Positions 2,975-50,900 of a DNA stretch of 64,000 nt are shown here, piece after piece (position 1 is the first letter of the stretch; each line of letters starts with the position of its first letter). The notes below the pieces were generated by a model. That model ran no database searches, was not told the DNA's origin, and saw nothing but the letters and a program-made list of their open reading frames with translations. This DNA is from a virus. The stretch lies in the IMG/VR virus record IMGVR_UViG_3300045988_173968; one strand, written 5' to 3'. The translations under genes were made by a program, and so were the position numbers.

Positions 2975-3050
2975 TGGTACGCCATCAGGGATTCGAACCC
3001 CGAACTAGCCGGATATAAGCCGGATACTCTGACCGTTGAGTTAATGGCGC
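2975..3050 (-). tRNA. tRNA-Ile (anticodon UAU), CCA encoded
   Basis: Hand-folded. Anticodon loop CUUAUAU, T loop UUCGAAU, G1-U72 wobble, and one mismatch at the base of the anticodon stem. Confidence 0.75.
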
Positions 3051-3076
3051 ATTTAAGCAGGCAAGCCTTGGCACCT

Positions 3077-3589
3077 CTAAACGAGGTGCCGCCTGTTGGT
3101 TCGATATGTATTGATTTCTTCTTGAAGCTCGTCCATGATGTCGGTAAGGATCTCCACATAGTTTTCATCTTGGCAGTAGCGATAAGCCACATCTTCAAGT
3201 TTCGAACCTGTGTACTTCCAGGAATCTGGATTGTTGTATTCCAACAGCCCTTCCGCAATGAACCAGATACATTCTTCAACGGAGTCGAACGACCGGAAAC
3301 TGCCATCATATTGACGCCAACCTCCGATGTTATTTTTCTCCTTGAAGTAGGTTGATGTTCCCCATCCGCTCTCCAATCCGAATTTTGCAAGTAAGTACAG
3401 CGGGTTTATTCCGTAATACTTCCCTGTTTCGAGGATTGTCCAAGCATATGGGGACAGCCCTTCTCGAAGATTTGTCAGTACATACTCGAATTCTTCCAAT
3501 GTGTAGTCCGTTTCATCGGTAAAGACTTCGTACCCATACGCCGGAACTACTATCAGAAGCGCTAAGAGGATTGCAATGATTTTACGCAT
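3077..3589 (-). CDS. secreted peptidoglycan hydrolase (N-acetylglucosaminidase-type domain)
   Basis: Signal peptide MRKIIAILLALLIVVPAYG. Motif LAKFGLESGWGTS...NNIGG is typical of the glucosaminidase (FlgJ/LytD-like) domain. AGGAGG RBS. Stop codon is TAG. Confidence 0.75.
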   Translation of the reverse strand: MRKIIAILLALLIVVPAYGYEVFTDETDYTLEEFEYVLTNLREGLSPYAWTILETGKYYGINPLYLLAKFGLESGWGTSTYFKEKNNIGGWRQYDGSFRSFDSVEECIWFIAEGLLEYNNPDSWKYTGSKLEDVAYRYCQDENYVEILTDIMDELQEEINTYRTNRRHLV

Positions 3590-3621
3590 TTAATACCTCC
3601 TGAATTTTTGCCCTTGCGGGC

Positions 3622-3698
3622 TGGTCGGGATGACAGGATTTGAACCTGCGACCTCGTACTCCCAAGGCACGCGCTCTACCAAGCTGAGCCACATCCCG
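3622..3698 (-). tRNA. tRNA-Pro (anticodon UGG), CCA encoded
   Basis: Hand-folded: CGGGAUG acceptor, anticodon loop CUUGGGA, T loop UUCAAAU. Confidence 0.9.
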
Positions 3699-3869
3699 AT
3701 AAAGAAAGAGCCTGCGGTTTTTCTACGCCACAGGCTCTTCCACAGAAAGGGGGCGATGCACATCCCTGCATCTGGGGCTCTTTTTCCGGCTTGCATTTCG
3801 CAAGTCGCCTCTCGCACGAGCAGTGCTAAGGTTATCTCGAAAGGAGGTGCGGGGGAATGACGACCCCCG

Positions 3870-3956
3870 TGGTGCCGCTGGCGGGATTTGAACCCGCACG
3901 ATGTTTCCATCGAGGGATTTTAAGTCCCTTTCGTCTGCCAATTCCGTCACAGCGGC
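3870..3956 (-). tRNA. tRNA-Leu (anticodon UAA), CCA encoded
   Basis: Hand-folded: anticodon arm AGGGA-CUUAAAA-UCCCU, long variable arm CGAUGGAAACAUCG, T loop UUCAAAU. Confidence 0.9.
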
Positions 3957-11828: not shown

Positions 11829-13076
11829 ATGAAATACACTTTTGGAAAGAAGGAATGTTTATTGAAGACAGTAAAAGTCTGCGACTCTATCATGGGCTCA
11901 GGCAAGACGAGTGCAGCGATACGGATGATGAACGAGGAAAGGGATAAGAGATTCATCTTTATTACTCCGTTCCTTGCTGAAGCTGACCGCATCGCAGAGG
12001 AATGCGAAAGCAGAGGTTTTACGGTTCCTGTTAAGGTTAAGGGCAGGAAACAGGAATGTCTGCACCAACTGTTGCGGGAAAAGAGGAATGTGTCCACCAC
12101 TCACGCACTGTTTCTGGACAGTACGGAGGAGACTATCCGGTTAATTGAAGAAGGCGGATACACATTAGTTCTCGACGAGGTACTTGAACTGTTCGAGAGC
12201 AAGGACATCTCGGAGGACGATGTGAACCTGTTGCAGATTGGCGGAGTAATTGAGATTAAGGAGAACGGTTCTGTTGTCTGGCTAAACGAAGAGTATGATG
12301 GTGTGTTTGCGGACTATAAGGAGATGGCACTGACTGGCGAACTTTATTACATCAATGATCGGCTGATGTTTTACTCCTATCCTGCTGATGTACTTAAGGC
12401 GTTTGAGGAAGTGTATGTGCTAACTTACATGTTCGCCGCCCAGACACAAAGATACTACTTTGACATGCGCGGTATTGGTTATGAGTACATCGGAACAAAG
12501 AAGCTGCCGGACGGGGGGTACATTTTCACCGAACGGGCGGAGGTACCTGAGTACGCTAGACACCTTAAGGAAAAGATACATATTGTGGACAGTGAGAAGA
12601 TGAACAGTGTAGGTAATGGGAAGTATGCCTTGTCTATGAGATAGTTCCAAGAGAGAGCCGAGCCGGAAGCCGTCGAGCAGATTAAAAAGAACCTACTAAA
12701 TTATTTTCAAGCAATTAGTGGTTCCAAGGCATCTGACCGCTTGTGGGCAACATACAACGTTTCCAAGGATAAGTTGCAGGGGCGTTATGGTCAAAGCTTT
12801 CTCTCCTTCAACTCTCGTGCGACAAATAGCTACAGAGACAAGACCTGTCTGGCGTATCTAGTAAATGTATTTATGAATCCATTTGAGTACAACTTCTTTA
12901 CGGCGCAGGGCGTCCAGCCAGACCAAGATGGGTATGCACTGTCTGTTATGGCTCAGTGGATCTGGCGGTCGGCTATCCGCGAGGGCAAAGACATTGAGAT
13001 TTACATACCGTCCAAGCGAATGCGAGACCTGTTGATTGCATGGTGCGATAGACTGGAGAAGGGAGAGATGCGGTAA
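11829..13076 (+). CDS. P-loop NTPase (helicase-like) with an in-frame TAG at 12642
   Basis: Walker A GSGKTS and Walker B LVLDEV. ORFs 11694..12644 and 12741..13076 are in the same frame, separated only by TAG. Start chosen at MKYTFGK. Confidence 0.55.
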
Positions 13077-15435: not shown

Positions 15436-18243
15436 GTGAGCTTAACTGACCAGATAAATATCTATGCCGTAGATTCTGACGCATTCTACAACGAGGAAGA
15501 ACGGGATATCAGTATTCAGCTCAATAATCTGCGCACCAGAAAGAAGAATTTGAAAGAGGAGTTACGAATTGCTGAGCAGTTTCTGGGTGGTTCCCTTCCG
15601 GAGAAGTCATAGGCTACCCGATATCGTGAGATATACCGGTTGCGTAAGGAAATTGAGATTGACCCGCCTACACAGGATGTGGTTGAGATTCTCAATGAGC
15701 AAATTGCTACCTTGACCCCTATTATCACGGGGCTCAAAAACGAGCTTAAGGATAAACTGGAGAGCCATTCCGGAATTCGCGCCCTTGACCCTCGTGCGCT
15801 CTCCCCTAAAAATGTTATATCGGTGTTTGAATCCGCCATGACAAGAGTGTTTGGCTTCGAGAAGGATCAGTTATACGATGATGTAATTGTTGTTCGGGCG
15901 TATTACTACGAGGTGCTGAAAGACATCATGCGGGATGGATTTCTTCACAATGGTGAGCGGTATGTGGTGTTTACGGCATCCGCAGGACAGATCCGAACCA
16001 AAAGAACCGTCTTTGTTAAGGAATCTCTGCTTGAGAAGCATCGTCTGACACTCATGTGTGGGCTTACGGTTGACCATATCAATGAGCTGGGCGGTGTCAA
16101 TGTCAATAAGTATCTGGCTTATTTGGCTTTGAGTAACTCTGCCACTGATATTTGGGAAGGGTTCGATATTGATAAGTCCATCGTTGTAGAAGACTTTGAG
16201 ACGCTCGTAAATGGCACCGTAGACTACATTGATGGTACTACATATGAAATCACTCGCAAGGAAATGGGCGTTCCCATAACGCACACAGATGGCTGTGGAA
16301 TGATGCTGCCGAGCATCAGTTGGAAGAACATGATGGTGCGGCTCCCATGGGTAAAGGGATTGCTCGCCTCTTTCGACTTCAAGAAGTTCATTCGAGAGGC
16401 TAATGAGAGAGAACCGGAGATAAACCATGGTCTCGTCAGAGATATCTACGGCAAAGAATGGGATATTCTGCGAGACGATATCCGTTGTATTTTCACTAAG
16501 AGTCAGTTCAAAATGTAGAAATATTACGACAATTGGCAGGATTATGTCGATAAATTTAAACATTATGGGTGTCTGGCGTGTAAGTGCAACGAAGAAGAGA
16601 GCTTCATCCCCAACGCCAAACTGAACTACCAGATGTTGCAGACTCTGACCGATATATCAGATGAGGAGTTGCGGGCTCTCGCTGAAAAGTCAGTCAAAAA
16701 GCTGGACAACATTGCAGCGGATAAGGATACCATGCTCCGAGTATTTGGTGTTAAGGACAGCAACCGAGAGAAGAATCACTTTCAGAAATGTGTCGGTATC
16801 TATAATGAACTTCTCTGCCAGGAGTATTCCAAGGAAACCTTAAAACAGATAAAAAAGAGCCTCGTCAATGACTATCGGGCGGGAAAATTTGATGTTGATG
16901 GCAAATATCTGTTTATTATTCCGGATCTGTACGCATTTTGCGAGCATCTGTTCCTTGGCATTGAAGTGCCGCAGGGGCTGCTTAAGGACGGTGAAGTGTC
17001 GGCAAGAGTGTTCGCCAAGCGGGAGAAGCTGGATTGCCTGCGGAGTCCACACCTCTACCGCGAGCATGGTGTTCGCCGTAATGTGGTCAACGAGGATACG
17101 AAGAAGTGGTTCCGTACTGATGCTCTTTATACAAGCTCTTATGATTTAATTAGCAAATTATTGCAATTCGATTGCGACGGAGATAAGAGCTTAGTGGTCG
17201 CTGACGAACTATTTGTCAGCATAGCAGAACGAAACATGCATGGTATTGTCCCCCTCTATTACGAGATGGCGAAGGCGGGACAGATGCATATTGACAATAT
17301 GAAGATCTACGATGGTTTGCAGGCTGCCTACAGCGGTGGCAATATCGGTGAGATCAGCAATACTATTACGAAGATTTGGAACAGTGGCGAAATGACGCAG
17401 GATAAACTTGATGTGATTAAGTGGTTATGCTTCGAGAATAATGCAACAATTGATTACGCAAAAACATTGTAGAAGCCCATCCGCCCACATTATGTTGATA
17501 AAGCCATTAAATCCTGCGCCAACTATAAGCCACCCCAATTCTTTATTTACGCTAAAGATAAAACCCAGGAACAAGTAGAACCACGCAATGACAGCATCGT
17601 CAACAAGTTGTTTGACATTATCCCCGATAAGAGAATGCGTTTTACGGCTGCCAACCTCGGGAAGTTCGATTATAAGGTACTGATGCGAAATCCCATCGTT
17701 TCTATTGACCCTCGTGTCATTGAGAAATTCAAAGATCTTGACGCCAGAAAGAACTTGTCTTTGTCTTACGGTTCCAACGAGGAGAACTATGCATTCTTCC
17801 GTACAACCGTTAGATGTGAGCTGTATGCTATTAACCCGAATGTGAACGCCGTCTGTGATATGCTTGTGGCTCACTTCTTCCGGGACAAGAAAAGTAAGAG
17901 CCTTAATACATTCTGGCTGTGCTATGGTGACATAGTGTTCCAGAATATTCGAAACAACATCGAGAAAGATTACATACAGTGCAGTTGCTGCGGCAAACGG
18001 TTCTGGAGAACCTCTTATAAGAACCAGATTTGCGAGGCATGCATTGAGAAGATGTCTAATCCAAATCTGCCAAAACCAATTAGATACAAGGTAAAGGTCT
18101 GCATTGATTGTGGTAAAGAGTTCAAGACAGTTTCTACCGCAAGACGAGCTTGTCGTTGCACCGAGTGTAGCAAAATACGGAAGAGGAAAAATACAGCTAA
18201 GCGCGTATCACTCTTCCGGAGCAAAGAAAGTAACGCTTTATAA
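15436..18243 (+). CDS. single-subunit two-barrel RNA polymerase (YonO / cellular RdRP-like) with in-frame TAGs at 15610, 16516 and 17470
   Basis: GTG start after GGGAGGGTGA. Motifs YVVFTASAGQIRTKRTVFV, LRSPHLYREHG and the catalytic FDCDGDKSLV (DxDGD). Four track ORFs lie in one frame, separated only by TAG. C-terminal CxxC zinc ribbons. Confidence 0.75.
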
Positions 18244-34062: not shown

Positions 34063-34077
34063 TAAGGAGTGGGTTTC

Positions 34078-35343
34078 ATGAACAAGGAAATTCTGACCAA
34101 AGTGATCCTTCGGAACGACAGTACCGCGAATTGGGACACTAAAAACCCCGTCCTTGATAAGGGCGAGATTGGTTTCGAGTTCACCGCTGACGGTGCCGTT
34201 CTTACCAAGGTTGGCGATGGTGCGACGGCTTGGAAACAGCTTGGCTACAGCGGCGTTGACGAGGACAAAATCAATACACTGATTGGGCAGGCTCGTGACA
34301 GCTATTATACTGTTGTTCGTAACGATGGCGAAACCGATAATGAAGCTATTACACGCGCTCTCGGCGAGTCTGTTGCCGCAAAGGGCGATGTATGCGCGAT
34401 CAAAACTGCGCTTGGTACTACCCCTGAGAGTTACTCTTATATGGGCTATGTATTTGACGGCGAGAACTGGGGTGCCATGGATGGCAACATCAACTCTGAA
34501 AATGTAATTATCGGCAAGGATCTGGTTTTCGCCGGCAGTTATACTTCTGTTGGCAATGTATCCAAGGGCACTACTATTCAGAAAGGCAAAACTCTGGATC
34601 AGCTTCTGACCGCAATGTTTACTCAGGAGCTCAATCCCCCCAAGCCTACTCCAACCTGCTTTGTCACTCTGACCGGCGCTGGTGCTAAGGAGGTTGGCGA
34701 AACCTTTACTCCTGCTTATACTACCGCTTTTGACCCGAAGACATATGCTTACGCCCCCACCGCTACTGGCGTCACTGCTACTGGCTGGGAAGTAAGTGAT
34801 AGCGCCGGTGCCAAGAAGACTACGGCTACCGGTTCCTTTGATGGTTTCACTGTCGAAGATAATACGAACTATAAGTTAACTGCTAAGGCTACATATGGTG
34901 ATGGTAATGTTCCTAAAACAAACCTCGGCAATGACTACCCGGCATCACAAATTAAAGCTGGCACTACTGCGGCTGCTTCTTCCGCTGCCGTTACTGGCTA
35001 TCGTAAGTGGTTTACTTATGTTGGTACTGATCTGACCGCTCTGACCAGCAATGTGATCCGTACTAAGGGTACAAGCAAGGGCGCTGCTGGCTCAAACTTC
35101 AATGTTAACCTGGCTATCCCTGCCGGCACTAAGCGTGTCTATGTTGCTATTCCCGCATCCAAGAACAAGGCTCTGTCTTCTGTAATAGATGTGGACGGTA
35201 TGGGTCTGGATGTAAAGGGCAATTTTACAAAGCAGACTGTATCTGTTGAAGGTGCTAATGGCTATACTGCCGTTGACTATGATGTATTCATTGTGGAAAA
35301 CCTGGCTGGTTTGGCTGCTACTACCTATCAGATCAAGTTTTGA
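34078..35343 (+). CDS. tail-fibre-like protein with an Mtd/HylP-type N-terminal motif
   Basis: RNDSTANWDTKNPVLDKGEIGFE...KVGDGATAWKQL. ATG after TAAGGAG. Confidence 0.6.
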   Translation: MNKEILTKVILRNDSTANWDTKNPVLDKGEIGFEFTADGAVLTKVGDGATAWKQLGYSGVDEDKINTLIGQARDSYYTVVRNDGETDNEAITRALGESVAAKGDVCAIKTALGTTPESYSYMGYVFDGENWGAMDGNINSENVIIGKDLVFAGSYTSVGNVSKGTTIQKGKTLDQLLTAMFTQELNPPKPTPTCFVTLTGAGAKEVGETFTPAYTTAFDPKTYAYAPTATGVTATGWEVSDSAGAKKTTATGSFDGFTVEDNTNYKLTAKATYGDGNVPKTNLGNDYPASQIKAGTTAAASSAAVTGYRKWFTYVGTDLTALTSNVIRTKGTSKGAAGSNFNVNLAIPAGTKRVYVAIPASKNKALSSVIDVDGMGLDVKGNFTKQTVSVEGANGYTAVDYDVFIVENLAGLAATTYQIKF

Positions 35344-39012: not shown

Positions 39013-39702
39013 ATGGCTCAAAAAATTATAAATGCAAGAGCTAAAAACAAGCGCGATACAAGCGCCAATTGGACTGCCGCAGATCCCGTGTTGCTCGATG
39101 GAGAAATCATTATTGTTGATACAGCGGAAGGCGAAGTTCGCACGAAGATCGGTGATGGTACAAAGAAGTATTCCCAGCTTCCGTTCGAGGATGAAAAATT
39201 GAGAAGTCTCCTGAACAATAAGCTGGATAAAAACGGGAAAGTTGATTGGAGCAACATAGAGAATGCTCCAACAATTCCATCTAATCTTGACAATGTTGTT
39301 ACATACGATGAAGGTGGTATTGTAGATGCGGCAGATCCAATCGACGCCGACACTCTCGGTGGGTATAGCGCTGCGTATTTTGCGACGAAATCATCTGTTG
39401 ATGCTACAAATTCGAGCCTTTCTTCTTTGCAGACATCTGTATCCAATGCTGAATCCAGTATCACCAGCTTGCAAGAGTCCGTAGCTTCTGCACAGTCAGA
39501 CATTGGCACATTGCAAACATCTGCAGAGAATCTGTCCTCTTCCAAAGTTGACAAGGCTGGTGGCACTATGAATGGCAAGCTTATAGCTCAAAATAATGCT
39601 GATTATGCCGTTAAGCAGATGCGCAATATTTTCATTTCTACTGCTGCACCTACTGCATCTGATGGTGCCAATGGCGATATTTGGCTTAAGTATGAAGCGT
39701 GA
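39013..39702 (+). CDS. tail-fibre-like protein with the Mtd/HylP-type N-terminal motif
   Basis: KRDTSANWTAADPVLLDGEIIIVD...KIGDGTKKYSQLPF. Confidence 0.6.
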   Translation: MAQKIINARAKNKRDTSANWTAADPVLLDGEIIIVDTAEGEVRTKIGDGTKKYSQLPFEDEKLRSLLNNKLDKNGKVDWSNIENAPTIPSNLDNVVTYDEGGIVDAADPIDADTLGGYSAAYFATKSSVDATNSSLSSLQTSVSNAESSITSLQESVASAQSDIGTLQTSAENLSSSKVDKAGGTMNGKLIAQNNADYAVKQMRNIFISTAAPTASDGANGDIWLKYEA

Positions 39703-39718: not shown

Positions 39719-41257
39719 ATGGCGACGGCTGATGCGGTTAAAGCTGTTCCTTCTGGTAAGCACATCTTGACCAATCTGCTTCCCCATAGCAGTTTTGATA
39801 ATGCCGGATGGACTTCTGGGGCAAATTGTACTGTATCTTATGATAGCACAATCAAGAAGTACGGAAATTATTCCTTAAAAGTCACAAGCACTGCTTCAAG
39901 CACTACGGAAAATTTATTCTACTCCTCTTCCCTACCATACCAGACGAAAGGCCACATTTACTACTGTAGATGCGAAATGTATCAAACTGTTGCTGGGGCG
40001 TCTTCTGGTATGCAAGCATATTGGCCAGAGGCTGAACCTTTCATGGGAACAAGTACATACGATTCCGCTAAGATAAACACATGGCAAATACAAAGCTTTA
40101 GAATTGTTCGTAGTTCATGGGCATCTGGAAATCAAAAATTTAGATTTGATGTTGAAGCCATGAAGTCTCCAAGTTTTATTTACATTGACGGTGCAATGCT
40201 CATTGATCTTACTGCAACATACGGCTCCGGTAATGAGCCTACTCAGGCGTGGTGCGATGCAAACATTCCATATTTTAGCGGAACACTCGTAATCGGAAAG
40301 CTAAGCCCCGGAGATATTATTAACTTTGATTATTCAGGGGCAGGAAATTTCATTGAACTTCCTGCTGGCAAATATAAACTCGAAGCATGGGGGGCTCAGG
40401 GAGGTAATTATTCATCCTATAAGGGTGGATATGGCGGTTATTCTGTCGGCGTTCTAAGTCTTGCTAAGAAAACACCACTTTATGTTTATTCTGGCGAGCA
40501 GGGTAGTTCCTCTGCTATAACTGGGGGATTTAATGGTGGCGGTAGCGGAAGAACATCTGGTCGCGGTGGCGGCGGTGCCTCCGATATTAGAATCGCACAA
40601 GATTCACTGTACGCTCGTGTAATCGTAGCGGGCGGCGGTGGCGGTTCCGGTGTTACATCCAGCGGTAGCGGCAAAGGTGTTGGCGGCGGTACAACCGGTC
40701 TTGGAGGCTACACGAACGAAACTACGCTTGCTGGAGGCAATCGTAGCGGCGGTGGCGGCACTCAGACAGAAGGCGGCATATCGTGGAATAACCAAAGCTC
40801 TACGAAGGGCACCTTCGGAAATGGCGGTAACGGAACCGGATATAGCTGCGGAGGCGGCGGTGGCGGTTGGTACGGCGGTGGCGGCGCATACGACAACGAC
40901 AGTGACTCTGATGGTCGTAACGGCGGCGGTGGTTCTGGTTACATCTATACAGCATCCACTGCATCAAATTACCCTTCTGGGTGTCTCTTGAACAGCTCTC
41001 ATTATCTTTCTGACGCACAAACTGCGACGGGAGCAACATCGTTTCCGTCCCCTACTGGCGCTAATGAAACAGGCCATACAGGGAATGGATATGCTCGCAT
41101 AACAGTAATCGAAGTTTCTCCGACCTTTTCTGCTCCAGTTAAAATTAGCGGCAACTGGAAAGTAGCTTCTGATGGTCTCGTTAAAATAAATGGTGCTTGG
41201 AAATCCGTTGAACAAGGCTTTGTAAAAATAAACGGTACCTGGAAAGAGATTTCATAA
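39719..41257 (+). CDS. glycine-rich-domain fibre or receptor-binding candidate (512 aa)
   Basis: GGYGGYSVG...GGFNGGGSGRTSGRGGGGASDIR...VAGGGGGSG pattern, as in the glycine-rich domains of phage fibre proteins. Confidence 0.55.
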   Translation: MATADAVKAVPSGKHILTNLLPHSSFDNAGWTSGANCTVSYDSTIKKYGNYSLKVTSTASSTTENLFYSSSLPYQTKGHIYYCRCEMYQTVAGASSGMQAYWPEAEPFMGTSTYDSAKINTWQIQSFRIVRSSWASGNQKFRFDVEAMKSPSFIYIDGAMLIDLTATYGSGNEPTQAWCDANIPYFSGTLVIGKLSPGDIINFDYSGAGNFIELPAGKYKLEAWGAQGGNYSSYKGGYGGYSVGVLSLAKKTPLYVYSGEQGSSSAITGGFNGGGSGRTSGRGGGGASDIRIAQDSLYARVIVAGGGGGSGVTSSGSGKGVGGGTTGLGGYTNETTLAGGNRSGGGGTQTEGGISWNNQSSTKGTFGNGGNGTGYSCGGGGGGWYGGGGAYDNDSDSDGRNGGGGSGYIYTASTASNYPSGCLLNSSHYLSDAQTATGATSFPSPTGANETGHTGNGYARITVIEVSPTFSAPVKISGNWKVASDGLVKINGAWKSVEQGFVKINGTWKEIS

Positions 41258-41274
41258 TGAAAGGAGTTGTTTCA

Positions 41275-41805
41275 ATGGCAAAGAAAGCTAATTTAAAAGA
41301 TCCACTTGGAAATATTTTATACCCTTATACTTTGGTTGACAGTGTTCGTGATGAAGCTGGGAGGGTGCTTAGTTCTCTTGTATTAAGAAAAGACAATACG
41401 ACAGAATTTACTCCATCTGCGGATTATCATCCGTCAACAAAGAAATATGTGGATGAAACCGCTGCAGCTAAGCAGCCAAAAATCACATCTTCCGGCATCC
41501 TTATGGGCAATGGTTCTGGTGGAGTGTCCGCTGCTACAGCAAACACTGATTATCTTCCCGTGTCAAACGCTAACCTTAAAGGAACGCCTACCGCACCAAC
41601 TGCAGCAAAGGGAACCAATACCACACAAGTTGCTACAACTGCTTTTGTCCAAAACGCTTTATCTGGCATAAGTGCCAAGGGATTTGAGTTTGGCACCACT
41701 GCTCCGACAAACACCAACCTGTTATGGATTGATACGACCAACGGAAGCATCCTCAAGTATTACAATGGGTCTGCATGGACAGCCGTAAATGCTGTATTTA
41801 AGTAA
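41275..41805 (+). CDS. fibre-associated protein ending LWIDTTNGSILKYYNGSAWTAV
   Basis: ATG after AAAGGAG, within ORF 41257..41805. Confidence 0.55.
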   Translation: MAKKANLKDPLGNILYPYTLVDSVRDEAGRVLSSLVLRKDNTTEFTPSADYHPSTKKYVDETAAAKQPKITSSGILMGNGSGGVSAATANTDYLPVSNANLKGTPTAPTAAKGTNTTQVATTAFVQNALSGISAKGFEFGTTAPTNTNLLWIDTTNGSILKYYNGSAWTAVNAVFK

Positions 41806-41817
41806 GGTGGTGATGAT

Positions 41818-42312
41818 ATGTCTTTATTAAGCAAGCTCATCATCAACATCCTGACTAAGGCGCAGTTGAATGGGGCGTCTGGTGTTACAACTTCTAAAAA
41901 GGATTTGTATTATGGAAGTAATGATCAGATCTACCTTGTTCCGCATGAGCAGGAAGCTCCAAATATTGATGTCGGCACAGTGACATCGGGTACTTCTCCC
42001 GCTGTCACTGTTTCCATATCTGGGGATAAGGCACTTCTCAACTTTGTGCTACAAAAAGGCGACAACGGTAAAGATGGAACGAATGGCACTAATGGTACAA
42101 GTGCCTATGAGGCCGCTAAAACCGGCGGCTATACTGGCTCTGAAACAGACTTTAATTCATCATTGGCCACTGTCCCCTCCTACTCTCCTTTTGTGTACTC
42201 GAGCTCGGCTCCCTCTGATACTAAGAAGCTTTGGATTGATACAGCAAACAGTAATATTATGAAGTTCTATAATGGTACTGCTTGGACTCCCATAGGCTCT
42301 GTATTTTCTTAA
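41818..42312 (+). CDS. fibre-associated protein with a short collagen-like GxxGxx stretch, ending LWIDTANSNIMKFYNGTAWTPI
   Basis: ORF with AAGGTGG RBS. Confidence 0.55.
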   Translation: MSLLSKLIINILTKAQLNGASGVTTSKKDLYYGSNDQIYLVPHEQEAPNIDVGTVTSGTSPAVTVSISGDKALLNFVLQKGDNGKDGTNGTNGTSAYEAAKTGGYTGSETDFNSSLATVPSYSPFVYSSSAPSDTKKLWIDTANSNIMKFYNGTAWTPIGSVFS

Positions 42313-42329: not shown

Positions 42330-42620
42330 ATGGAAACGATAGACTTAATTATAAAAATTGCAGCTTTGATTACTGCGGTTGCGACTTGCTTTGCGTTGGT
42401 TAAGCAGATACATAGGGCAGTAAAGTGGGTCGAACATTTGGCTCAACAGTGTGACGAGAATGTTTTAAGCATTTTACGGCTCACTATTGTGTCTACTGAG
42501 ATGCCAATGTCTGAACGCATTGCCGCCGGAGATAAGTACATTAAGCTTGGCGGTAATGGCGCTGTTAAACATTTGTATCAGAGTTTGGTTGATGAGAACG
42601 CTAAAGACGAGAAAATTTAA
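42330..42620 (+). CDS. small membrane-anchored protein (96 aa)
   Basis: ATG after GGGAGGA. N-terminal hydrophobic helix IIKIAALITAVATCFALV. Confidence 0.5.
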   Translation: METIDLIIKIAALITAVATCFALVKQIHRAVKWVEHLAQQCDENVLSILRLTIVSTEMPMSERIAAGDKYIKLGGNGAVKHLYQSLVDENAKDEKI

Positions 42621-42634
42621 GAAGGAGGGATTAT

Positions 42635-43141
42635 ATGGTTGATTTAAGCTTTTATAGCCTGCTTGTGGCTGTAAAATCGTTTGAACCTGTTACAGAAAAT
42701 TTGGTTGCTGATTACTACGCACAAAGCAATCATCTTAGTATTGACGATTTATTTATGGTGCTCGCCGATGGAAGCGATCGTTATAAAGATAAAACACTTG
42801 ATGAGATCTTAGAGTATTGTTCCTCTGCAGCGAGCTCAATCTGTGCTGGCTATGGTGTTGCTGAGAGGTTTTCCCCTATTTTTAAAGCATATTTGATTCC
42901 ATACGATTGTAGCACTTCTACCGACGAAGATAGAAGTAAACTAATCTCTCTTTATGAGTCTGCTGCGTGCATCGATGTTTCAAATAATGATCCTGCGTGG
43001 TATCTTAGGGAAAATATTAGATATCGCCTGATGAGTATTTATGTTGTTTCTTCGAACGATATTGACAAGATAAAAGAATTGCTCCCAAAGGTGAAGGCTG
43101 GTAAAGAACAGTATAGCAAATGGCTTGTAAAAGAGAGGTGA
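42635..43141 (+). CDS. hypothetical protein (168 aa)
   Basis: ORF with AAGGAGGG RBS. Confidence 0.5.
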   Translation: MVDLSFYSLLVAVKSFEPVTENLVADYYAQSNHLSIDDLFMVLADGSDRYKDKTLDEILEYCSSAASSICAGYGVAERFSPIFKAYLIPYDCSTSTDEDRSKLISLYESAACIDVSNNDPAWYLRENIRYRLMSIYVVSSNDIDKIKELLPKVKAGKEQYSKWLVKER

Positions 43142-43147
43142 GGTTAA

Positions 43148-43762
43148 GTGTCTTTAGAATCGAAAAACACAATCCTCGCTTCTGATTTCGTGTCCCTCAA
43201 AGCTCGTGTTAAAGCTGAAATGAATCGAAGACAATATGTGGGTTCGTTGGTTTCTTATGCCGGAACTGCCTATGATTATTCAGTAATACCAATAAGTGGT
43301 GGCGTTATTTCAACTGAACATATCAATAAGCTTGTAACTCCAGTGAATGCAATCGCAGCGAGTGGATATACAGCCAAAAATTCAGGAGATATAGTTCAGG
43401 AGCTTTCGGCTTTTAGCACTAAACTTAAGGCTCATGAAAGTCAGGCGCTGTATGGAGCAACAGACTGCGCGAGTAGCTGTTCTGGGTTGTGTAGTTCTGC
43501 TTGCAGTGGCACTTGCTCCGGTTGTAGCGGTTGTTCTGGTTGCGGAGGATGTGACACAACTTGCAGCGGCTCTTGCAGCGGCGGTTGTGAAGGTTGCGGA
43601 TCTGGTTGTAACGCAGGTTGTGCGCCGTCTTGTGCGGGTGGCTGCTGGAATGATGGATGTACCAGCAGTTGTACTGCAACATGCCGAACTTGCGCGGGAG
43701 TATGCGGTAACGGTTGTGGATATAATTGTGGTTCGAATTGCAGCGGGGGCAACACAAAATGA
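43148..43762 (+). CDS. CXXX-repeat protein A: 106-aa N-terminal domain plus a 25-Cys repeat region
   Basis: GTG start after GAGAGGTGAGG. The C-terminal 98 aa reads CASSCSGLCSSACSGTCSGCSGC...CGSNCSGG. The N-terminal domain is paralogous to gene 46049..46699. Confidence 0.75.
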   Translation: MSLESKNTILASDFVSLKARVKAEMNRRQYVGSLVSYAGTAYDYSVIPISGGVISTEHINKLVTPVNAIAASGYTAKNSGDIVQELSAFSTKLKAHESQALYGATDCASSCSGLCSSACSGTCSGCSGCSGCGGCDTTCSGSCSGGCEGCGSGCNAGCAPSCAGGCWNDGCTSSCTATCRTCAGVCGNGCGYNCGSNCSGGNTK

Positions 43763-43892
43763 TTCATAAATCAGAATTTAGTCCTTTGGGATAGCTTGAT
43801 TTTAAAAAGAACTGAGAACCACTTCGCATAGGAACGAAAGTTATGGAATTGTTGTTGTCGCAGTGGTTGTAGTTTTAATTGGGGAGTTGTAT

Positions 43893-44405
43893 ATGTTTGG
43901 AATTTCGATGGCAAATGTATCTGTGAAAATCGCCGAGTTAAAAGATATTGTGATTGACGAGATTCAGGAGTGTATTGATGAAGGTAATATAAAGCCAGAA
44001 TATGCCCCGTATTATATCTTGGTTTATTATTCGACTCAGAGCAAAATTTCAGAATCTCGTAGCAATCTTTTGACTTATTGTTCTAACATAGTCAATGTTA
44101 TTGAAGCGGCGACAGGCATAACATATGACGATAATTTTAAAAATGTTGTTATTGATTTCTTTATTGCTTTTAGATCCATAGAAAATATAGATATTGATAA
44201 ACGGATCGAAGAGCTTGAGGGAATCATTAGCAAATACAAAAACCTCACTGTTGGTAGTATTGAATGGTTTTTGATTGAATTTATGAAAAGAGAACTCCTT
44301 GGCCGTTATGCTGGTGATGCTAAGTATTTTGAAAAGATGAAACTGTTAGTCGCCGAGTCATCACCCACAGACAATATATATAAAGAGTTCTCAAGCCAAG
44401 TATGA
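43893..44405 (+). CDS. hypothetical protein (170 aa), AT-rich gene
   Basis: ATG after GGGGAG, within ORF 43863..44405. Confidence 0.5.
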   Translation: MFGISMANVSVKIAELKDIVIDEIQECIDEGNIKPEYAPYYILVYYSTQSKISESRSNLLTYCSNIVNVIEAATGITYDDNFKNVVIDFFIAFRSIENIDIDKRIEELEGIISKYKNLTVGSIEWFLIEFMKRELLGRYAGDAKYFEKMKLLVAESSPTDNIYKEFSSQV

Positions 44406-44424
44406 TATGTATTGGAGGATTAAC

Positions 44425-44709
44425 ATGAAAGAGATTAAGGTACAATTAACAAGCAAAGAAAGCACATATATTGAGAGACTTTGGTATGAATACAATGCTT
44501 CTCTGAACATTCTGAGATTTTTGATGTCTCAGGATACCGTACTGGAACAGCATCTGCAAAAGTATTTGGATAGTTCGGAAGCAAAATACGCGGAGCTCGA
44601 GATGGCCAAGGATAGTGTCAGTAAGGCACATAAGCCCGAGGAGATTACTGGAGAATATGATTATCGATTCGACTTTGACGAAGAATGCTTAATTTACAAG
44701 GAGAAATAA
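44425..44709 (+). CDS. small accessory protein translationally coupled to the radical-SAM gene
   Basis: ATG after TGGAGGA. Its stop lies 1 nt before the start of the radical-SAM gene. Confidence 0.55.
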   Translation: MKEIKVQLTSKESTYIERLWYEYNASLNILRFLMSQDTVLEQHLQKYLDSSEAKYAELEMAKDSVSKAHKPEEITGEYDYRFDFDEECLIYKEK

Positions 44710-44710
44710 G

Positions 44711-46027
44711 ATGAAGAAGAGAGTCGATATTGGTTATCACGATTATGTATATAAATTATTTTTTGAGCCAGGCTTAGATCTTGCGCCTAACGAGAGCCTG
44801 ACAAGAAATATTACCTTTCAGGTAACTGATGACTGCTGTATGAATTGCTCCTACTGTTACCAAGGTCATAAAGGTCATCGCATCATGTCTAAGGAGGTCG
44901 CCCGCAAGGGAGTTGACCTCCTTTTTGATATGTATGAGAAAAATGATAGCCCATTTATCAACAAAAAGACCAAGGCCATCATCCTCGACTTCATTGGCGG
45001 TGAACCGTTAATGGCGGTTGATGTTATCGATTACATCTGTACCTATTTTGTGCAGAAATGTCTTGAGCTTGATCACCCGTGGCTATATACATGGCGTGCC
45101 TCGATGACATCAAACGGCGCTTTGTATTTTGAGCCAGCTGTTCAGAATTTTCTGAAAAAGTTCCGTGGCAATGTGAGCTTCTCAATCACTCTTGATGGCC
45201 CTAAAGAAATTCACGATGCTTGTCGAGTTTACCACGATGGTCGTGGTAACTTTGATGATGCCTATGCTGCGATGAAGCATTTTAATTCGCACTACTACGA
45301 AGAGCTTGGCACTAAGGTTACTATTGCGCCGGAAAATCTGCATAATCTTAATAAAATCGTAGATTTCTTTCTTGCGGAAGGCATGAATCTTATTCACGCA
45401 AATTGCGTGTATGAAGCAAAGTGGACTTATGAACAAGCAAGCGTATTTTACGATGAGTTAAAAAAGATGGCCGACAAGTTGCTTGAACGCAATGATGAAA
45501 CTACTGTGAGCCTGTTTGATGAAGCGTTCTTCAGACCATTACCGCCAGAAGAAAATTCAAATTGGTGTGGAGGGGATATGAAAATGTTGGCATTTGACCC
45601 GGCTGGCATTGCATATCCGTGTTTGCGATATATGTCATCATCTCTTGGAACTGATAGAGCCCCAATTATAGTTGGCTCAGTAGATGGGCTCTTTGTTACG
45701 GAAGAGCAAAAGAACATCAAAGAATACATGGATAAAATAACACGCCGTTCTCAGTCTACGGATGAATGCTTTAATTGCCCGATAGCGGGCGGCTGTGCTT
45801 GGTGCTCCGCTTGGAATTACCAAGAAACTGGTTCCGTTAACAAGCGCAGTACAAATATTTGTGCAATGCACAAAGCCAGGTCTTTAGCTAATGTGTATTA
45901 CTGGAACAAGTGGTATAAGCAGAACGGTATCGACAAGGTATTCAAGATGTATCTGCCCAAAGAAGAAGCCTTAAAGATCATCAACGAGCAGGAATACGAT
46001 ATGCTTGCTGAACTCAGCAAAGAGTAA
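44711..46027 (+). CDS. radical SAM / SPASM-domain peptide-maturase-like enzyme (anSME-related)
   Basis: CMNCSYCY (CxxxCxxC) near the N-terminus, GGEPL, and C-terminal auxiliary-cluster cysteines (WCGG..., YPCLRY, CFNCPIAGGCAWCSAWNY...CAMHK). Confidence 0.85.
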   Translation: MKKRVDIGYHDYVYKLFFEPGLDLAPNESLTRNITFQVTDDCCMNCSYCYQGHKGHRIMSKEVARKGVDLLFDMYEKNDSPFINKKTKAIILDFIGGEPLMAVDVIDYICTYFVQKCLELDHPWLYTWRASMTSNGALYFEPAVQNFLKKFRGNVSFSITLDGPKEIHDACRVYHDGRGNFDDAYAAMKHFNSHYYEELGTKVTIAPENLHNLNKIVDFFLAEGMNLIHANCVYEAKWTYEQASVFYDELKKMADKLLERNDETTVSLFDEAFFRPLPPEENSNWCGGDMKMLAFDPAGIAYPCLRYMSSSLGTDRAPIIVGSVDGLFVTEEQKNIKEYMDKITRRSQSTDECFNCPIAGGCAWCSAWNYQETGSVNKRSTNICAMHKARSLANVYYWNKWYKQNGIDKVFKMYLPKEEALKIINEQEYDMLAELSKE

Positions 46028-46048
46028 AAATGAAAGGAGGTCATATCT

Positions 46049-46699
46049 ATGGCTCTTGAATCAAAGAATCAGACGCTTGCCTCCGATTTTATATCTCTTA
46101 AAGCAAGAGTAAAAGCTGAAATGCAACGCCGTAAATATAACGGTGATCTTACAAAATACGCTGGAGCCGAATGGGATTATGTTGTTCAGCCGACTGCCGG
46201 TGGGAAACTTCTGCCGGAACACTATAATAAAATCATTGAACCGCTGAATGCTATTGCACCGACTGGGTTTAATGCCCCCATAAGGCAAGGCGATCATGCA
46301 ATTGCTATTAAGGTTGCAGTGGACAAACTGGAAGAATACGAGAAGAAGTCTCCATCGAGCGGAGCAAATGACTGTGCTGTGAGTTGCTCTGGGAGATGCA
46401 CCACGAGCTGCGGGAGTAATTGTTACAAAGTCTGCCATGGCGGTTGTAGTTATGGGTGCGGTGTTGGCTGTAGCGGCGATTGTGATGGTGGATGTGAAGG
46501 TGATTGCAATACGACTTGTTCTGGAACATGCAAAACTGGTTGTGGTGGAGGATGTAAAGGAACATGCAAAGGTGGTTGCAGCAATGGCTGCAGTCAGTAT
46601 TGCAACTTGTCTTGCGGCTACGGTTGCGGCATGGGCTGCGGTAATGGTTGTGGCGGGAGTTCAGGCGGCGGAACCACTAATCCTGGCACCGGAGCCTAA
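46049..46699 (+). CDS. CXXX-repeat protein B: 108-aa N-terminal domain plus 24 perfectly phased Cys-X3 repeats
   Basis: ATG after GAAAGGAGG. Repeat region CAVSCSGRCTTSCGSNCYKVCHGGC...CGMGCGNGCGG. Confidence 0.8.
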   Translation: MALESKNQTLASDFISLKARVKAEMQRRKYNGDLTKYAGAEWDYVVQPTAGGKLLPEHYNKIIEPLNAIAPTGFNAPIRQGDHAIAIKVAVDKLEEYEKKSPSSGANDCAVSCSGRCTTSCGSNCYKVCHGGCSYGCGVGCSGDCDGGCEGDCNTTCSGTCKTGCGGGCKGTCKGGCSNGCSQYCNLSCGYGCGMGCGNGCGGSSGGGTTNPGTGA

Positions 46700-47933: not shown

Positions 47934-50900
47934 GTGGCTGATAATTATAAGATAAGACTTATTGGTGAGTTGGACGCTGAAACAACCACCTCGAATATAA
48001 AAAAACAACTCGAAGGAATAAAGATTAAGGCAAACATTCTTGAAGGCGGTTTTACCGCGGAGAGTATAGAGAAGCTTTCCGAGCAAATCTCCAATGCAGT
48101 AGATGCTTATCAGAAGAAAAGCGAAAAATCTCCTATACGGGTTCCAATTAAAATCTCCAAGGTTGATGGAAGTGAAGCTATTGCTGTATTCAAGAATCAG
48201 CTTAGCAAGGAGATCAATGCTCTGAACATTGCCTCTCCTGGTACGCACGATGTGCATTTGGAAATCAAGGATTCCGAGTAGGGCAAAGAAAAGGCTGCAG
48301 CTCTTAAACAAGAAGCAAATGAGCAAGCGGCTAAGGCTGCCGAAAAAGAATTAAAGGCTCATCAGGCTACAAATACTGCTTTGCAAAATGAGATTGATAA
48401 GCTCAAGGAGAAGTTCCAAGAGCAGCAAAAAGCTAACGCAGAAGCACTGGCTGAAGAGCGTCAGGCGAGAAAAAAGGCTGAAGCCGAAGCGGCTGTGACA
48501 AACGAGAAGAAAAAGCAGCAGGAAGCTGAAGTTGCCGCTCAAGCCGCCCAAAAAAGAACTAACAAACTGATTCAGGATTCTATAAGTTTACTTAATAAAC
48601 AGACTGTTTATTTCAAGAAAAACCCCGTTGTATATAACGGAAACATACTTGACGCTAACCGTTGGAAATACCAGTTAAACAATATCATCAATGGCAAGGT
48701 TACAAATCCTGATGAAGCGGCAGATATCGTTTCAAAATATCGTCAGTGGTTTGACGGTATGAAAACATCCGCTATTGAAGCTGGCATAACTGGCGCAACG
48801 GCCATCGATAAGATAAAGCAGGCTATTACTAAGTTTGGCAGTTGGAACATCATGACTTTTGCCATCACCAAACTTAAGCGCGGCCTTGTTGATATCGTTA
48901 AAAATGTCAAAGAGCTTGATGCTGCGATGACGGAGCTGCAAAAAGTTACGGATGAAACATCCAACCGATACGAGCGCTTTGTTAAGGACGCTGCTGCTTC
49001 CGCCAAGCAACTTGGTACTACCCTTGTCGGTATCGTAAACGCTACGAGCACATTTGCTCGACTTGGCTACAATATAGATGATGCTTCTGAATATGCAAAA
49101 ATCGCAACCGTCTATAAGAATGTTGGCGACTCTATTGAAAGTATCGATGATGCTGCAAGCAGTCTTGTCTCTACGATGAAAGCATTTAAGCTTGAGAGTA
49201 TTAGTGACGCTTGGGGTATTATTGATCTGTTTAACGAGGTTGGCAACTCCTTTGCGACTACATCCGGAGACATCGGCGAAGCGATGAAGCGCTCTGCCTC
49301 TGCTTTGTATGAAGCGGGCAATACGATTGAGCAGTCTGTTGGTTTGTATACTGCAGCGCAAACGATTGTACAGGATGCTGATGTAGTTGGTACGGCATTA
49401 AAGACTCTTTCTATGCGCTTGCGTGGCACAAAAACTGATCTTGAAGCCGCTGGACTTGATGTCGATGGGCTTGCATCTTCTACATCTGCGTTAAGAGGTG
49501 AGATCCTTGCCCTTACCAATGTGGATATTATGAAGAGCGCTACCGAGTTCAAGTCTACATATGAAATGTTGCAGGATTTGAGCAAGGTATGGGATAAGCT
49601 CGAAGAAACCTCTCGTGCCAGAGTTCTTGAACTCGTTGCCGGTAAGCGAATGGCTTCCACAGTTGCGGCCATTATCAATAATTTCGACATTGCTGAAGAA
49701 GTTACTGGATTGAACTATTCCGGCAGTGCCTTAAAAGAAAATGAGAAATACCTCGAAAGTATCAATGGACGCATTGATGTACTTAAAGCTTCTTATGAGG
49801 AACTTTCTCAAACCGTGCTCGATAGTGGTCTTGTTAAAGCATTTGTAGATATCGGGAATGCAGCTATCAATGCATTTAACTGGCTTTATAGCGCAGAAAT
49901 TAGTTCTGACTCTCCGATTGGCAAATTAGGCAACATTTCAAAAAGTGTATATGAAATCAAAGATGCTATAACTTCCTTAATCCCATCCTTAGATCATGTT
50001 TCGAAGATAAAGCTGTGGGGCATCTTGCCAACAATCATTCCTGCTATTACTGCCATTTCCAATGTACTAAGCAAAGGAAATGATAACGGGTATGTACAGG
50101 TAAAAAGAGAAGGAACATCATTAAGGCTTGCTGGCACTGATCGCTGGGCGAACGAAAAGGAAGCACTATCAGAAAAAGACTACCTTGACTTCTTAGGGTT
50201 TGGAGATTATACAAAGGCTGAAAAGTATCTCAAGAAAAATAAAGATAAATTTGACGGGTTATTTAAAGAGATTCTCACATGGAAATACGATTCGACTGAT
50301 CTTGATCCAGACACGCTACTTCCAAAGAAAAAATTCAAACCCCTCTTTGAAACTGACCCTCAAAAATATCAGGAGAAGATAAAGCAATTTGGCGCTTATG
50401 CTGATGCGGCTGATCAAATTGCCCATAGCACTGAGCAAGCAGCGGAAGCTACTGATATGATGGGCGAAGCCGTTGTTCGAGACACCTTTAAATATAAAGC
50501 TTTTACTGTTGCTGCTAAAGCGGCCAATGTAGCTTTATCAACGCTTAAGAGTCTCGCTATCTCATTTGCTATTCAGCTCGCTATAAACGCGGTAGTTGCT
50601 CTTGTCGATGAACTTAAAAATGGCATGAGCAACGCTGTTGAACGAGTGAGCGATGCCAAATCTGCTCTTGAAAGTGTTGACGAAAAAATCTCCGATACAA
50701 CAAAAGAACTTGAAGAGGCTCAGAGCAGGATTAAAGATATTCAAAATCTTGGAAAACTGTCAATTACGGATGCATCTGATCTCCGTAATCTTCAGTTATC
50801 CAATGCTCAACTTCTTGTACAGCTTTCGTTGCTCGAAAAGGAAAAAGAGCTTAAAGAAGCTGAACTTAATGCTGGCAAGAATGCCGTTTGGAATCGTTTT

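Follow-up and report, generated by a model that had tools for sequence, protein, structure and literature searches.

Gene content of the cassette

The window, a gut-phage DNA stretch of 64,000 nucleotides, contains a six-gene cassette at 42635-46699 that encodes a radical-SAM/SPASM enzyme, two cysteine-rich proteins (CysA and CysB), a 94-residue accessory protein (p94) and two paralogues of ~170 residues (p170a and p170b; Table 1). An earlier note on this DNA had recognised the enzyme, CysA, CysB and the 94-aa ORF, and all four ORFs are present where it had placed them. It overlooked p170a and p170b, and the cassette is extended here because these two genes belong to it as well.

Table 1 Cassette genes and adjacent fibre-type genes
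Feature	Position	Strand	Description
Small fibre-type proteins (two)	41257-41805 and 41818-42312	+	Tail-fibre PHROG matches, shared C-terminal motif
p170a	42635..43141	+	168-aa accessory protein, p170b paralogue, lineage-specific 'slot' protein
CysA	43148..43762	+	204 aa, GTG start, putative substrate
p170b	43893..44405	+	170-aa accessory protein
p94	44425..44709	+	94-aa accessory, remote TIGR04116 homologue (CXXX repeat peptide modification system protein)
Radical-SAM/SPASM maturase, TIGR04115 family	44711..46027	+	438 aa
CysB	46049..46699	+	216-aa CysA paralogue, putative second substrate

The genes are tightly packed with strong ribosome-binding sites (GAGGTG 5' of CysA), and p94 stops 1 nt ahead of the ATG of the enzyme. 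Promoter and terminator counts within the cassette show no excess over shuffle expectation. Hence, the cassette reads as part of a late operon. Searches against Pfam, NCBIfam and PHROG found no protease or exporter family in the cassette or neighbouring genes. The GC content is 0.34-0.38 for p170a, p170b and p94 (0.339 for p170b), 0.42 for the enzyme and 0.48-0.49 for CysA and CysB, compared to an average of 0.44 ± 0.04 for other late genes. The view that the cassette is more AT-rich than its flanks therefore holds for the p170 and p94 genes only, and fails for the enzyme, CysA and CysB; since low GC is confined to the small accessory genes, composition lends little weight to the idea that the cassette arrived as one AT-rich block.

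The paralogy of p170a and p170b was established by comparing the p180 family with the g42635 family (hhalign probability 91.6%, E 8e-7, 151 aligned columns; reversed control 0.2%), while Pfam, NCBIfam and PHROG searches with p170a were empty. The p170b ORF is open from a GTG at 43863, with homologues and independent gene calls pointing to ATG 43893 as the probable start. At five loci (L017-L021), a p170a homologue fills the slot flanked by the Cys-rich gene and p94. Slot proteins of ~170-200 aa fall into at least three families with undetectable mutual relatedness.

The maturase, its accessory protein and the repeat proteins

The enzyme matches TIGR04115 with 386.6 bits (cutoff 350) over the full model (1-359/359), placing it, as the earlier note had argued, in the CXXX-repeat class of rSAM/SPASM maturases; it also matches phrog_1802 (1e-53). 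In L001, a phage relative at greater distance, the enzyme reaches 300.6 against TIGR04115 and stays under the cutoff. The runner-up models describe thioether-forming enzymes, namely PapB (NF047865, 162.9 bits, cutoff 340) and the SCIFF maturase (TIGR03974, 91 bits, cutoff 425). The model for sulfatase maturases (anSME), the identity set beforehand against the peptide maturase assignment, gives only 46.3 bits versus a TIGR03942 cutoff of 349, which answers that check. The best solved structure is that of CteB (5WGG, E 5e-20), with both rSAM core and SPASM domain aligned and the alignment beginning at CteB residue 92. The CxxxCxxC cluster and Cys-rich SPASM-type C-terminus first read from the sequence correspond to C42-x3-C46-x2-C49 and to seven C-terminal cysteines (C286, C304, C353, C356, C362, C365 and C384), all invariant across six phage enzymes. 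A literature search found no published chemistry for the TIGR04115 family, in agreement with the class having been described as without known chemistry.

The curated TIGR04116 model does not match p94, and yields a weak match in just 2/39 family members. Profile-profile comparison of a 39-member p94 profile with 74 Bacteroidales TIGR04116 sequences (hhalign) gave a probability of 89.6% and E 1.9e-6 over 80 columns, full-length and colinear; no control exceeded 1.6%. The proposed search of this ORF against CXXX accessory families thus returned a homologue that, judged from aligned profiles, is genuine though remote, at superfamily level and outside the curated cutoff. The AlphaFold2 model of p94 (pLDDT 95) consists of one beta strand, a helical hairpin and a beta hairpin; it is unmatched in the PDB at E ≤ 1e-3, where generic helical hairpins head the list, and shows no RRE-like fold.

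A direct count confirms the 25 and 24 cysteines reported for CysA and CysB, the latter in perfect CXXX phase. All those of CysA lie within residues 107-198, a 92-residue CXXX-repeat domain, with 17 of the 24 Cys-to-Cys spacings equal to 4, six equal to 3 and one equal to 5. In CysB (residues 109-201) the spacing is 4 in 23/23 cases. When each Cys region was shuffled 200,000 times, spacing-4 pairs numbered 11 at most, compared to 17 (CysA) and 23 (CysB) observed, and these are the sole Cys-periodic ORFs in the whole window. Curated repeat models stay below cutoff (TIGR04114, 14.3 versus 20; TIGR04117, 17.1 versus 50). Across 129 phage proteins 83% of the Cys spacings equal 4, and across 64 cellular targets 91% do, with X-position preferences (X1 S/T/G, X2 G, X3 G/S/T/N) and the opening motif C-x-[GS]-S-C-[SY]-G-L-C common to both. 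Within the protein, constraint is strongest in the first four repeats (dN/dS 0.03-0.22); in the distal repeats dN/dS never exceeds 1, giving no positive evidence of receptor-driven diversification.

The repeats follow a charged, non-hydrophobic N-terminal domain (N-domain) of ~105 aa with no Tat signal. It is 48% identical between CysA and CysB, upholding their proposed paralogy, and that of CysA (~106 aa) lacks any Cys. The structure model is of low confidence (pLDDT 55-62). The N-domain family comprises 527 clusters at 90% identity and 364 at 50%, with CXXX repeats present in 102/107 full-length members; no cultured phage carries the domain. The CysB gene is confined to the closest relatives of the window (L013, L022 and L028-L032).

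Seeding through the N-domain alone yielded 60 viral loci, with an rSAM gene ≤4 kb away in 60/60 and p94 in 53/60. It is very probable that the enzyme acts on CysA and CysB. The Cys-rich domains could instead be metal or iron-sulfur modules (metallothionein- or ferredoxin-like), either unmodified or altered without cross-linking by oxidation, methylation or conversion. Cys contents of ~25% would suit such a role, as would the absence of known TIGR04115 chemistry and of any fold predicted by AlphaFold without ligands (pLDDT ~30 for the unmodified Cys-rich half). Furthermore, the cellular homologues go through the Tat pathway, whose usual cargo is folded protein already loaded with cofactor; however, Tat export fits a pre-cross-linked, non-unfoldable cargo just as well. 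That a SPASM-type peptide maturase accompanies the Cys-rich proteins in 60/60 loci implies enzymatic modification rather than simple metal binding, and the closest characterised relatives of the enzyme all form thioethers, making the metal-binding explanation improbable.

Tail-fibre context and domain fusions

Downstream of the cassette lies a tape measure gene (phrog_4211, 1.9e-77), while the fibre-type proteins upstream carry Mtd_N domains, an ALK/LTK glycine-rich domain and tail-fibre PHROG matches. The location inside a phage tail module, as noted earlier, is thus confirmed. Both small fibre-type proteins share the terminal motif AP..T.LLWIDT.N..L.KY.NG.AW; in other phages it reappears as the C-terminus of the pre-cassette fibre gene. 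A fibre C-terminal motif is located upstream in 43/60 loci. Carriers include 38-kb podovirus-like phages, >100-kb phages and Bacillota prophages, with the cassette mostly 3' of a fibre gene. The window represents a phage type of >200-kb contigs with the tape measure downstream; in 38-kb phages with a P22 portal the cassette directly follows an 843-aa collagen-repeat fibre, and in a prophage of cultured Faecalibacterium prausnitzii it comes after baseplate and fibre genes. The hosts are likely Bacillota, not Bacteroidota. The pairing of this enzyme with a protein bearing Cys at every fourth residue is an uncharacterised one, found in many phages of anaerobic gut bacteria.

Several homologues are fused to other domains. 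P0345 combines an N-terminal domain of the type seen in the window fibre protein g39719 (34% identity, E 2e-17) with the N-domain and CXXX repeats, and in g39719 the same N-terminal domain precedes a polyglycine-II glycine-rich domain (ALK/LTK-GRD-like). P0339 contains a CBM_4_9-like insert, P0300 fuses the N-domain to a fibre-module protein, and P0313 is a substrate-p94 fusion (p94 HMM E 1e-19). These fibre-type and carbohydrate-binding-like fusion partners point to products that serve as virion components for host recognition.

Two further roles were weighed against this. The modified proteins might be RiPP-like products freed at lysis (a bacteriocin, signal, or anti-competitor/anti-defence agent), with the N-domain as a long leader. 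The enzyme does come from RiPP-type maturase families, the cassette acts as a mobile module across phage types, and long leaders occur in other rSAM systems. We nevertheless consider such products unlikely: no leader peptidase, transporter or immunity gene is found in or beside the cassette at the loci inspected, and in the 38-kb genomes, which are small and apparently lytic, the cassette sits within late structural operons. Cellular CXXX substrates have only a Tat signal and no N-domain equivalent; recognition by the enzyme thus does not require the N-domain, which excludes it as a recognition leader. Protein size (up to 464 aa with 91 Cys in the largest phage proteins) and the fusions to fibre-type and CBM-like domains also argue against a released peptide. 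The earlier proposal of a virion or host-interaction component rather than a secreted RiPP thus gains strong circumstantial support from the 60/60 linkage, the fibre adjacency in unrelated phages, the fibre-domain fusions and the lack of a protease or exporter; incorporation into the virion is what we infer from these.

Alternatively, the Cys-rich proteins could function in morphogenesis, as chaperones or scaffolds for tail-fibre assembly that do not stay in the finished particle. Small genes directly 3' of fibre genes often encode fibre chaperones, and slot-protein type co-varies with fibre C-terminal type. Against this, an enzyme-installed covalent modification would be costly for a transient role, the fusions put the CXXX module in one polypeptide with fibre and CBM-like domains, and the cellular homologues function as exported proteins rather than as chaperones. 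The chaperone role is the least probable of the alternatives, and we lean towards a fibre or virion component. Fibre-gene adjacency might also stem from chaperoning or from a hotspot for moron-like insertion.

Proposed maturation and comparison with known systems

We propose, with about equal weight for and against, that the cassette is a phage-adapted CXXX-repeat rSAM maturation system building fibre-associated modified proteins. CysA and CysB would be produced in the host cytoplasm, where the TIGR04115-family enzyme, aided by p94, would modify the repeat region, with recognition probably via the conserved opening repeats D-C-A-S-S-C-S-G-L-C. The modification would most likely consist of many Cys-derived thioether cross-links, a chemistry that we give an even chance by analogy with related enzymes; the thioether idea extrapolates from relatives of 25-35% identity. 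Cross-linking could convert an intrinsically unstructured Gly/Ser/Cys stretch to a rigid module resisting reduction and proteolysis, which the N-terminal domain would then carry into or onto the tail-fibre (host-recognition) apparatus. We infer an accessory role for p94 from its remote homology, and the lineage-specific ~170-aa proteins may act as partner-specific assembly factors. Thioethers would take over the role of disulfides. The latter have no way to form in the cytoplasm and would be short-lived in the reducing gut, the presumed habitat of the strictly anaerobic Bacillota hosts. A bolder and more tentative version is that the CXXX module forms a thioether-laddered, redox-proof rod or knot on tail fibres of strict-anaerobe phages, architecturally interchangeable with polyglycine-II adhesin domains and serving host recognition or fibre stabilisation. 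If true, maturation by a dedicated radical-SAM enzyme would be seen here for the first time in a virion structural protein, and the chemistry used throughout the TIGR04115 CXXX family, exported Bacteroidales proteins included, would come to light.

The nearest known system is the cellular Bacteroidales CXXX system (TIGR04115/04114/04116/04119), which shares the maturase family (above cutoff) with an identical repeat period, X-position grammar and opening motif. It also has a ~90-aa accessory to which phage p94 appears remotely homologous, having diverged too far for the curated model. In contrast, 59/64 cellular targets carry an RRxF-type Tat signal where the phage targets have the ~105-aa N-domain. 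The cellular system has a second, SPASM-only maturase (TIGR04119) that the phage version lacks (0 matches in the window and 110 phage loci; tblastn with the L002 protein, E ≤ 0.01), while the phage cassette has the extra lineage-specific ~170-200-aa protein. The phage cassette occupies tail-fibre modules, whereas cellular locus L002, the only one of the cellular loci (281 others) that this comparison covers, adjoins tatA/tatC. In both settings the CXXX module would be made inside the cytoplasm and end outside.

PapB, the second-best family match at 163 bits and far under its cutoff of 340, is an rSAM/SPASM enzyme working repeatedly on a tandem Cys-X3 motif, as proposed here; in the ranthipeptide freyrasin it installs six Cys-Asp S-C-beta thioethers at CXXXD motifs and needs the Asp acceptor (PMC12373016). 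The phage repeats have no conserved Asp acceptor, and substrates of 200-460 aa contrast with the short peptide of PapB. CteB, the SCIFF maturase (PDB 5WGG, 5WHY), is thioether-forming and the closest solved structure, but its peptide-recognition domain (residues 1-91) has no counterpart in the phage enzyme. An RRE (PqqD-like) domain, fused or discrete, is seen neither in the enzyme (CteB alignment) nor in the p94 model. The RiPP-type arrangement of a short precursor with cleavable leader plus protease or exporter is not matched by substrates of 204 and 216 aa.

Among virion proteins, glycine-rich polyglycine-II modules occur in phage fibre proteins and in adhesins of the T4-type gp38 kind. By analogy, these are likewise small, distal in the fibre gene set, low-complexity Gly/Ser-rich and periodic, and in P0345 the CXXX module sits where g39719 has its glycine-rich domain. 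The two share no sequence homology, the CXXX module needs a dedicated enzyme and its adhesin role is putative. The HK97 capsid forms an isopeptide chainmail autocatalytically between subunits, and offers a precedent for covalent cross-links toughening a virion component. Unlike HK97, where the reaction is autocatalytic and confined to the capsid, a separate radical enzyme is proposed here to act on a fibre-associated protein before assembly.

Organisation of the cassette

The two Cys-rich putative substrates (CysA and CysB), the radical-SAM/SPASM maturase and the 94-residue accessory protein (p94) described in an earlier note on this DNA were all confirmed, coordinates included. Two genes for paralogous proteins of ~170 aa had been overlooked, so the inventory stands for the four named ORFs but was incomplete. 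The homology of the additional pair, p170a and p170b, was detected with hhalign (probability 91.6%, E 8e-7; reversed control 0.2%). With these two genes the cassette spans 42635-46699 and encodes the enzyme, a single p94 and two each of the substrates and the ~170-aa proteins, with a GGAGG-type ribosome-binding site ahead of every gene.

Cassette genes in the window and their main features
Gene	Coordinates	Features
p170a	42635-43141	p170b paralogue, immediately 5' of CysA
CysA	43148-43762	GTG start, 204 aa, 25 Cys, all within residues 107-198
p170b	43893-44405	~170-aa gene between CysA and p94
p94	44425-44709	stop 1 nt ahead of enzyme start codon
rSAM enzyme	44711-46027	CxxxCxxC = C42/C46/C49
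CysB	46049-46699	216 aa, 24 Cys, spacing exactly 4 in 23/23

The Cys-X3 repeats are as first noticed, with CysB in perfect phase and 17 of the 24 CysA spacings equal to four by direct count; across 200,000 shuffles of each Cys region, the maximum was 11 spacing-4 pairs. The proposed paralogy is borne out by the N-terminal domains (N-domains), which are 48% identical and contain no Cys in either protein. No internal promoter or terminator signal for substrate-to-enzyme stoichiometry rose above shuffle expectation in the cassette. The cassette had also been described as AT-rich and possibly acquired as a unit. This composition applies to the p170 genes and p94 (GC 0.34-0.38) but not to the enzyme, which is ordinary (0.42), or to CysA and CysB, which are richer in GC owing to their Cys, Gly and Ser codons. 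AT-richness is a weak sign of recent horizontal transfer or of acquisition as a unit, and the latter is better indicated by mobility of the cassette among phage types.

A gene placed after the last fibre-type gene and before p170a (42330-42620, phrog_32121) encodes a small protein whose N-terminus is predicted to form a membrane helix (METIDLIIKIAALITAVATCFALV...); this protein is conserved in loci L013, L022 and L027-L032 of other genomes.

Family assignment and allelic variation

The suggestion that the enzyme belongs to the CXXX-target subfamily was upheld by profile-HMM search, with TIGR04115 ('radical SAM peptide maturase, CXXX-repeat target family') scoring 386.6 bits against a cutoff of 350. 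The model for PapB, which acts on CXXXD motifs (PMC12373016), scored 163 bits and, like the other peptide maturase models, was far under its cutoff. A sulfatase maturase is not indicated, the corresponding model reaching only 46 bits (cutoff 349). Besides the three cluster cysteines, seven more are invariant across phage homologues. The nearest solved structure is that of the thioether-forming CteB; the alignment begins at CteB residue 92, hence the phage enzyme lacks the CteB N-terminal peptide-recognition domain. We found no published chemistry for the TIGR04115 CXXX family, and the literature on phage rSAM/RiPP and on tail-fibre thioethers equally gave nothing relevant. Haft & Basu 2011 and Hudson 2019 are reportedly the founding papers.

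While p94 was matched by no curated family model, a profile of 39 members aligned over its full length with a TIGR04116 profile of 74 Bacteroidales proteins (probability 89.6%, E 1.9e-6; reversed and decoy controls ≤1.6%), so that the proposed role as a CXXX-system accessory is supported by profile-profile alignment but not by curated models. In the predicted fold (pLDDT 95), a single beta strand is combined with a long helical hairpin and a beta hairpin. Solved structures, PqqD-like folds among them, contain nothing that matches it, and a canonical PqqD-type RRE could thus be ruled out. The sole matches in a viral structure library are uncharacterised proteins of uncultured phages.

Several close and distant relatives carry an intein in the enzyme gene (L013:6915-8003, L020:6924-8003, L021, L022:8145-8579, L027, L029 and L033), its insertion site being precisely the third CxxxCxxC cysteine (C/LTGD...VHN/C, slashes marking the junctions; window ~44855). 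The L020 intein is a full Hint plus LAGLIDADG form with an intact product of 796 aa, and that of L022 a mini-intein of ~145 aa. No intein interrupts the window allele, and independent samples show the two alleles circulating together. A group I intron was rejected as the interruption, given that Rfam found nothing and translation revealed the intein.

The intein-bearing alleles also have conserved in-frame TAG codons, one aligned to a Trp codon of the window (TGG, 45092) and the other opposite Trp in L020. In-frame TAGs followed by long open frames occur at L013:7773 and 8238 and at window positions 12642-12644, 16516-16518, 17470-17472 and 48279-48281. An ORF at 47934, equipped with a ribosome-binding site, continues through TAG into the tape measure, whose nominal TTG start (48381) has none, and two TAGs link three ORFs within 15640-18243. 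This codon pattern suggests TAG read-through or recoding. No suppressor tRNA was found in the window; a tRNA cluster (2247-3956, minus strand) encodes Ser-TGA, Ile-TAT, Pro-TGG and Leu-TAA, and a fifth tRNA-like element (2791-2859; Rfam 50.8 bits) has a 3-nt anticodon loop and no ARAGORN call. The region 15640-16515 (possibly through 18243) matches Pfam RdRP PF05183 over model positions 51-172 of 582 only, and may represent a phage RNA polymerase of the YonO/crAss type, interrupted by in-frame TAGs.

Distribution and linkage to tail-fibre modules

The cassette is a real, widespread phage variant of a maturation system defined so far only bioinformatically, and is tightly wired into tail-fibre modules of gut Bacillota phages. 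An enzyme-seeded search retrieved 22 IMG/VR loci, all ordered Cys-rich protein, ~170 aa, ~94 aa, rSAM. An independent N-domain-seeded search yielded 79 loci, the 60 with enough flank being used for counts. The synteny survey proposed in the earlier note placed the enzyme within 4 kb of the N-domain gene in 60/60 of these, with p94 present in 53 and a recognisable fibre C-terminal motif just upstream in 43. Clustering divides the N-domain family into 527 groups at 90% identity and 364 at 50%. CXXX repeats follow in 102 of 107 full-length representatives; of the five exceptions, two or more appear to be frameshifted.

The window's phage is found on 200-280-kb contigs, with the tape measure just downstream of the cassette, while in ~38-kb P22-portal phages the cassette lies between an 843-aa collagen-repeat fibre and the lysis genes. 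Further copies lie in prophage-like regions of Oscillospiraceae, Faecalibacterium, Erysipelotrichaceae and other Bacillota, and in these genomes the Cys-rich proteins extend to 370-464 aa and 63-91 Cys. One such copy is on a complete F. prausnitzii chromosome, with baseplate hub and wedge genes upstream. These prophage copies came to light via the enzyme-profile seed only, and GTDB representative genomes contain no prophage with the exact KARVKAEM-type N-domain. The N-domain is in no cultured phage of the collection searched. Deposited phages have no nucleotide similarity to the window and, at the protein level, one unannotated human-faecal contig alone shares the cassette.

Several variants were observed among these loci. 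The L225 protein has 91 Cys in 464 aa, Oscillospiraceae versions (L128:5567-6493) display an 11-residue super-repeat C-[ST]-G-C-G-S-G-C-P-x-x, and a second Cys-rich ORF without N-domain (L120:3017-3505) has 41 Cys in 162 aa. The F. prausnitzii prophage has a reverse transcriptase (phrog_1423; L138:12712-13989) ~3 kb 3' of its cassette, and two fibre-module proteins of the window (34069-35343 and 39013-39702) have Mtd_N (major tropism determinant N-terminal) domains; diversity-generating retroelements may lie near the cassette.

Proposed role and comparison with the cellular system

Fusions appear to tie the CXXX module to fibre architecture. In the N-domain family protein P0345, a fibre N-terminal domain shared with window gene g39719 (34% identity, E 2e-17) leads directly into the N-domain and CXXX repeats; in g39719 (39719-41257) it precedes an ALK/LTK-type polyglycine-II domain (155 bits). 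The first ~70 N-domain residues of P0300 are fused to a protein of the fibre module whose gene neighbours the cassette in other phages. P0339 has a CBM_4_9-like insert, under the curated threshold, and P0313 is a substrate-p94 fusion, which could be a merged gene call.

Family-model searches found no protease, exporter or immunity gene in the cassette. Given that protease and exporter are missing, that fusions exist and that the proteins are large, a released RiPP-like product is a poor fit. The AlphaFold2 model of CysA (pLDDT 43) is too low in confidence for a fold search, and the unmodified Cys-rich half has no predicted fold. Together with the fusions, the lack of export or release genes and an N-domain that seems dispensable, this favours CysA and CysB as a putative covalently modified, extracytoplasmic structural or recognition module on the fibre apparatus. 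A non-virion fibre chaperone is possible, but sits poorly with the fusions and with export of the cellular homologues. By homology, thioether cross-linking is our best guess for the chemistry of the proposed fibre-attached module; thioethers would stand in for disulfides, being bonds that can form in the cytoplasm and persist in the reducing habitat of anaerobes.

To our knowledge, no virion component for host recognition has been described with cross-links installed by an enzyme. If true, this reading would be categorically new for phage biology and would join RiPP-type radical enzymology to phage structural biology. Phages of Oscillospiraceae and Faecalibacterium, key gut anaerobes that are hard to study, commonly carry the module, which may affect their host range or the stability of their particles in the gut; the prophage copy in cultured F. 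prausnitzii (strain 2, NZ_CP186691.1, around 2.32-2.34 Mb) opens the question to experiment. Gut Bacteroidales widely encode the TIGR04115 CXXX family, whose chemistry could be worked out on the phage proteins as compact, soluble and signal-free substrates. Protein engineers may likewise be interested in thioether-stabilised repeats as scaffolds in which disulfides are replaced by redox-insensitive links.

In the cellular system, a Segatella/Prevotella-type locus (L002) encodes, in order, a Tat-signal CXXX protein, TIGR04115 (630 bits), the SPASM-only TIGR04119, TIGR04116, tatA and tatC. The accessory gene occurs in 281 further loci of Bacteroidales and other genomes. TIGR04119 is absent from the window and 110 phage loci, whereas the lineage-specific protein of ~170-200 aa is an addition of the phage cassettes. 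The latter has at least three families with no detectable similarity to one another, and which of them is present tracks the type of upstream fibre C-terminus. A single family was accordingly dropped, as were window gene g46727 and a 202-aa protein of the distant phage relative L001 as p170 relatives (no detectable relation by hhalign).

A Tat-like signal is present in 59 of 64 cellular targets, its place in the phage proteins being taken by the ~105-aa N-domain. Tat export of the cellular homologues would agree with metal or Fe-S binding by the Cys-rich domains, a role they may have, although such binding leaves the strict enzyme linkage unexplained. The opening repeats (DCASSCSGLCSSAC...) are the most constrained region (dN/dS 0.03-0.22). 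Distal non-Cys codons range from 0.2 to 0.98, always below 1, so that no positive selection was demonstrated there. Since cellular substrates have the same opening repeats and no counterpart of the N-domain, the latter is probably dispensable for enzyme recognition. Cys spacings equal four in 83% of cases in phage proteins and 91% in cellular targets. In both, X1 is S/T/G, X2 mostly G and X3 G/S/T/N, and both share the opening motif C-x-[GS]-S-C-[SY]-G-L-C.
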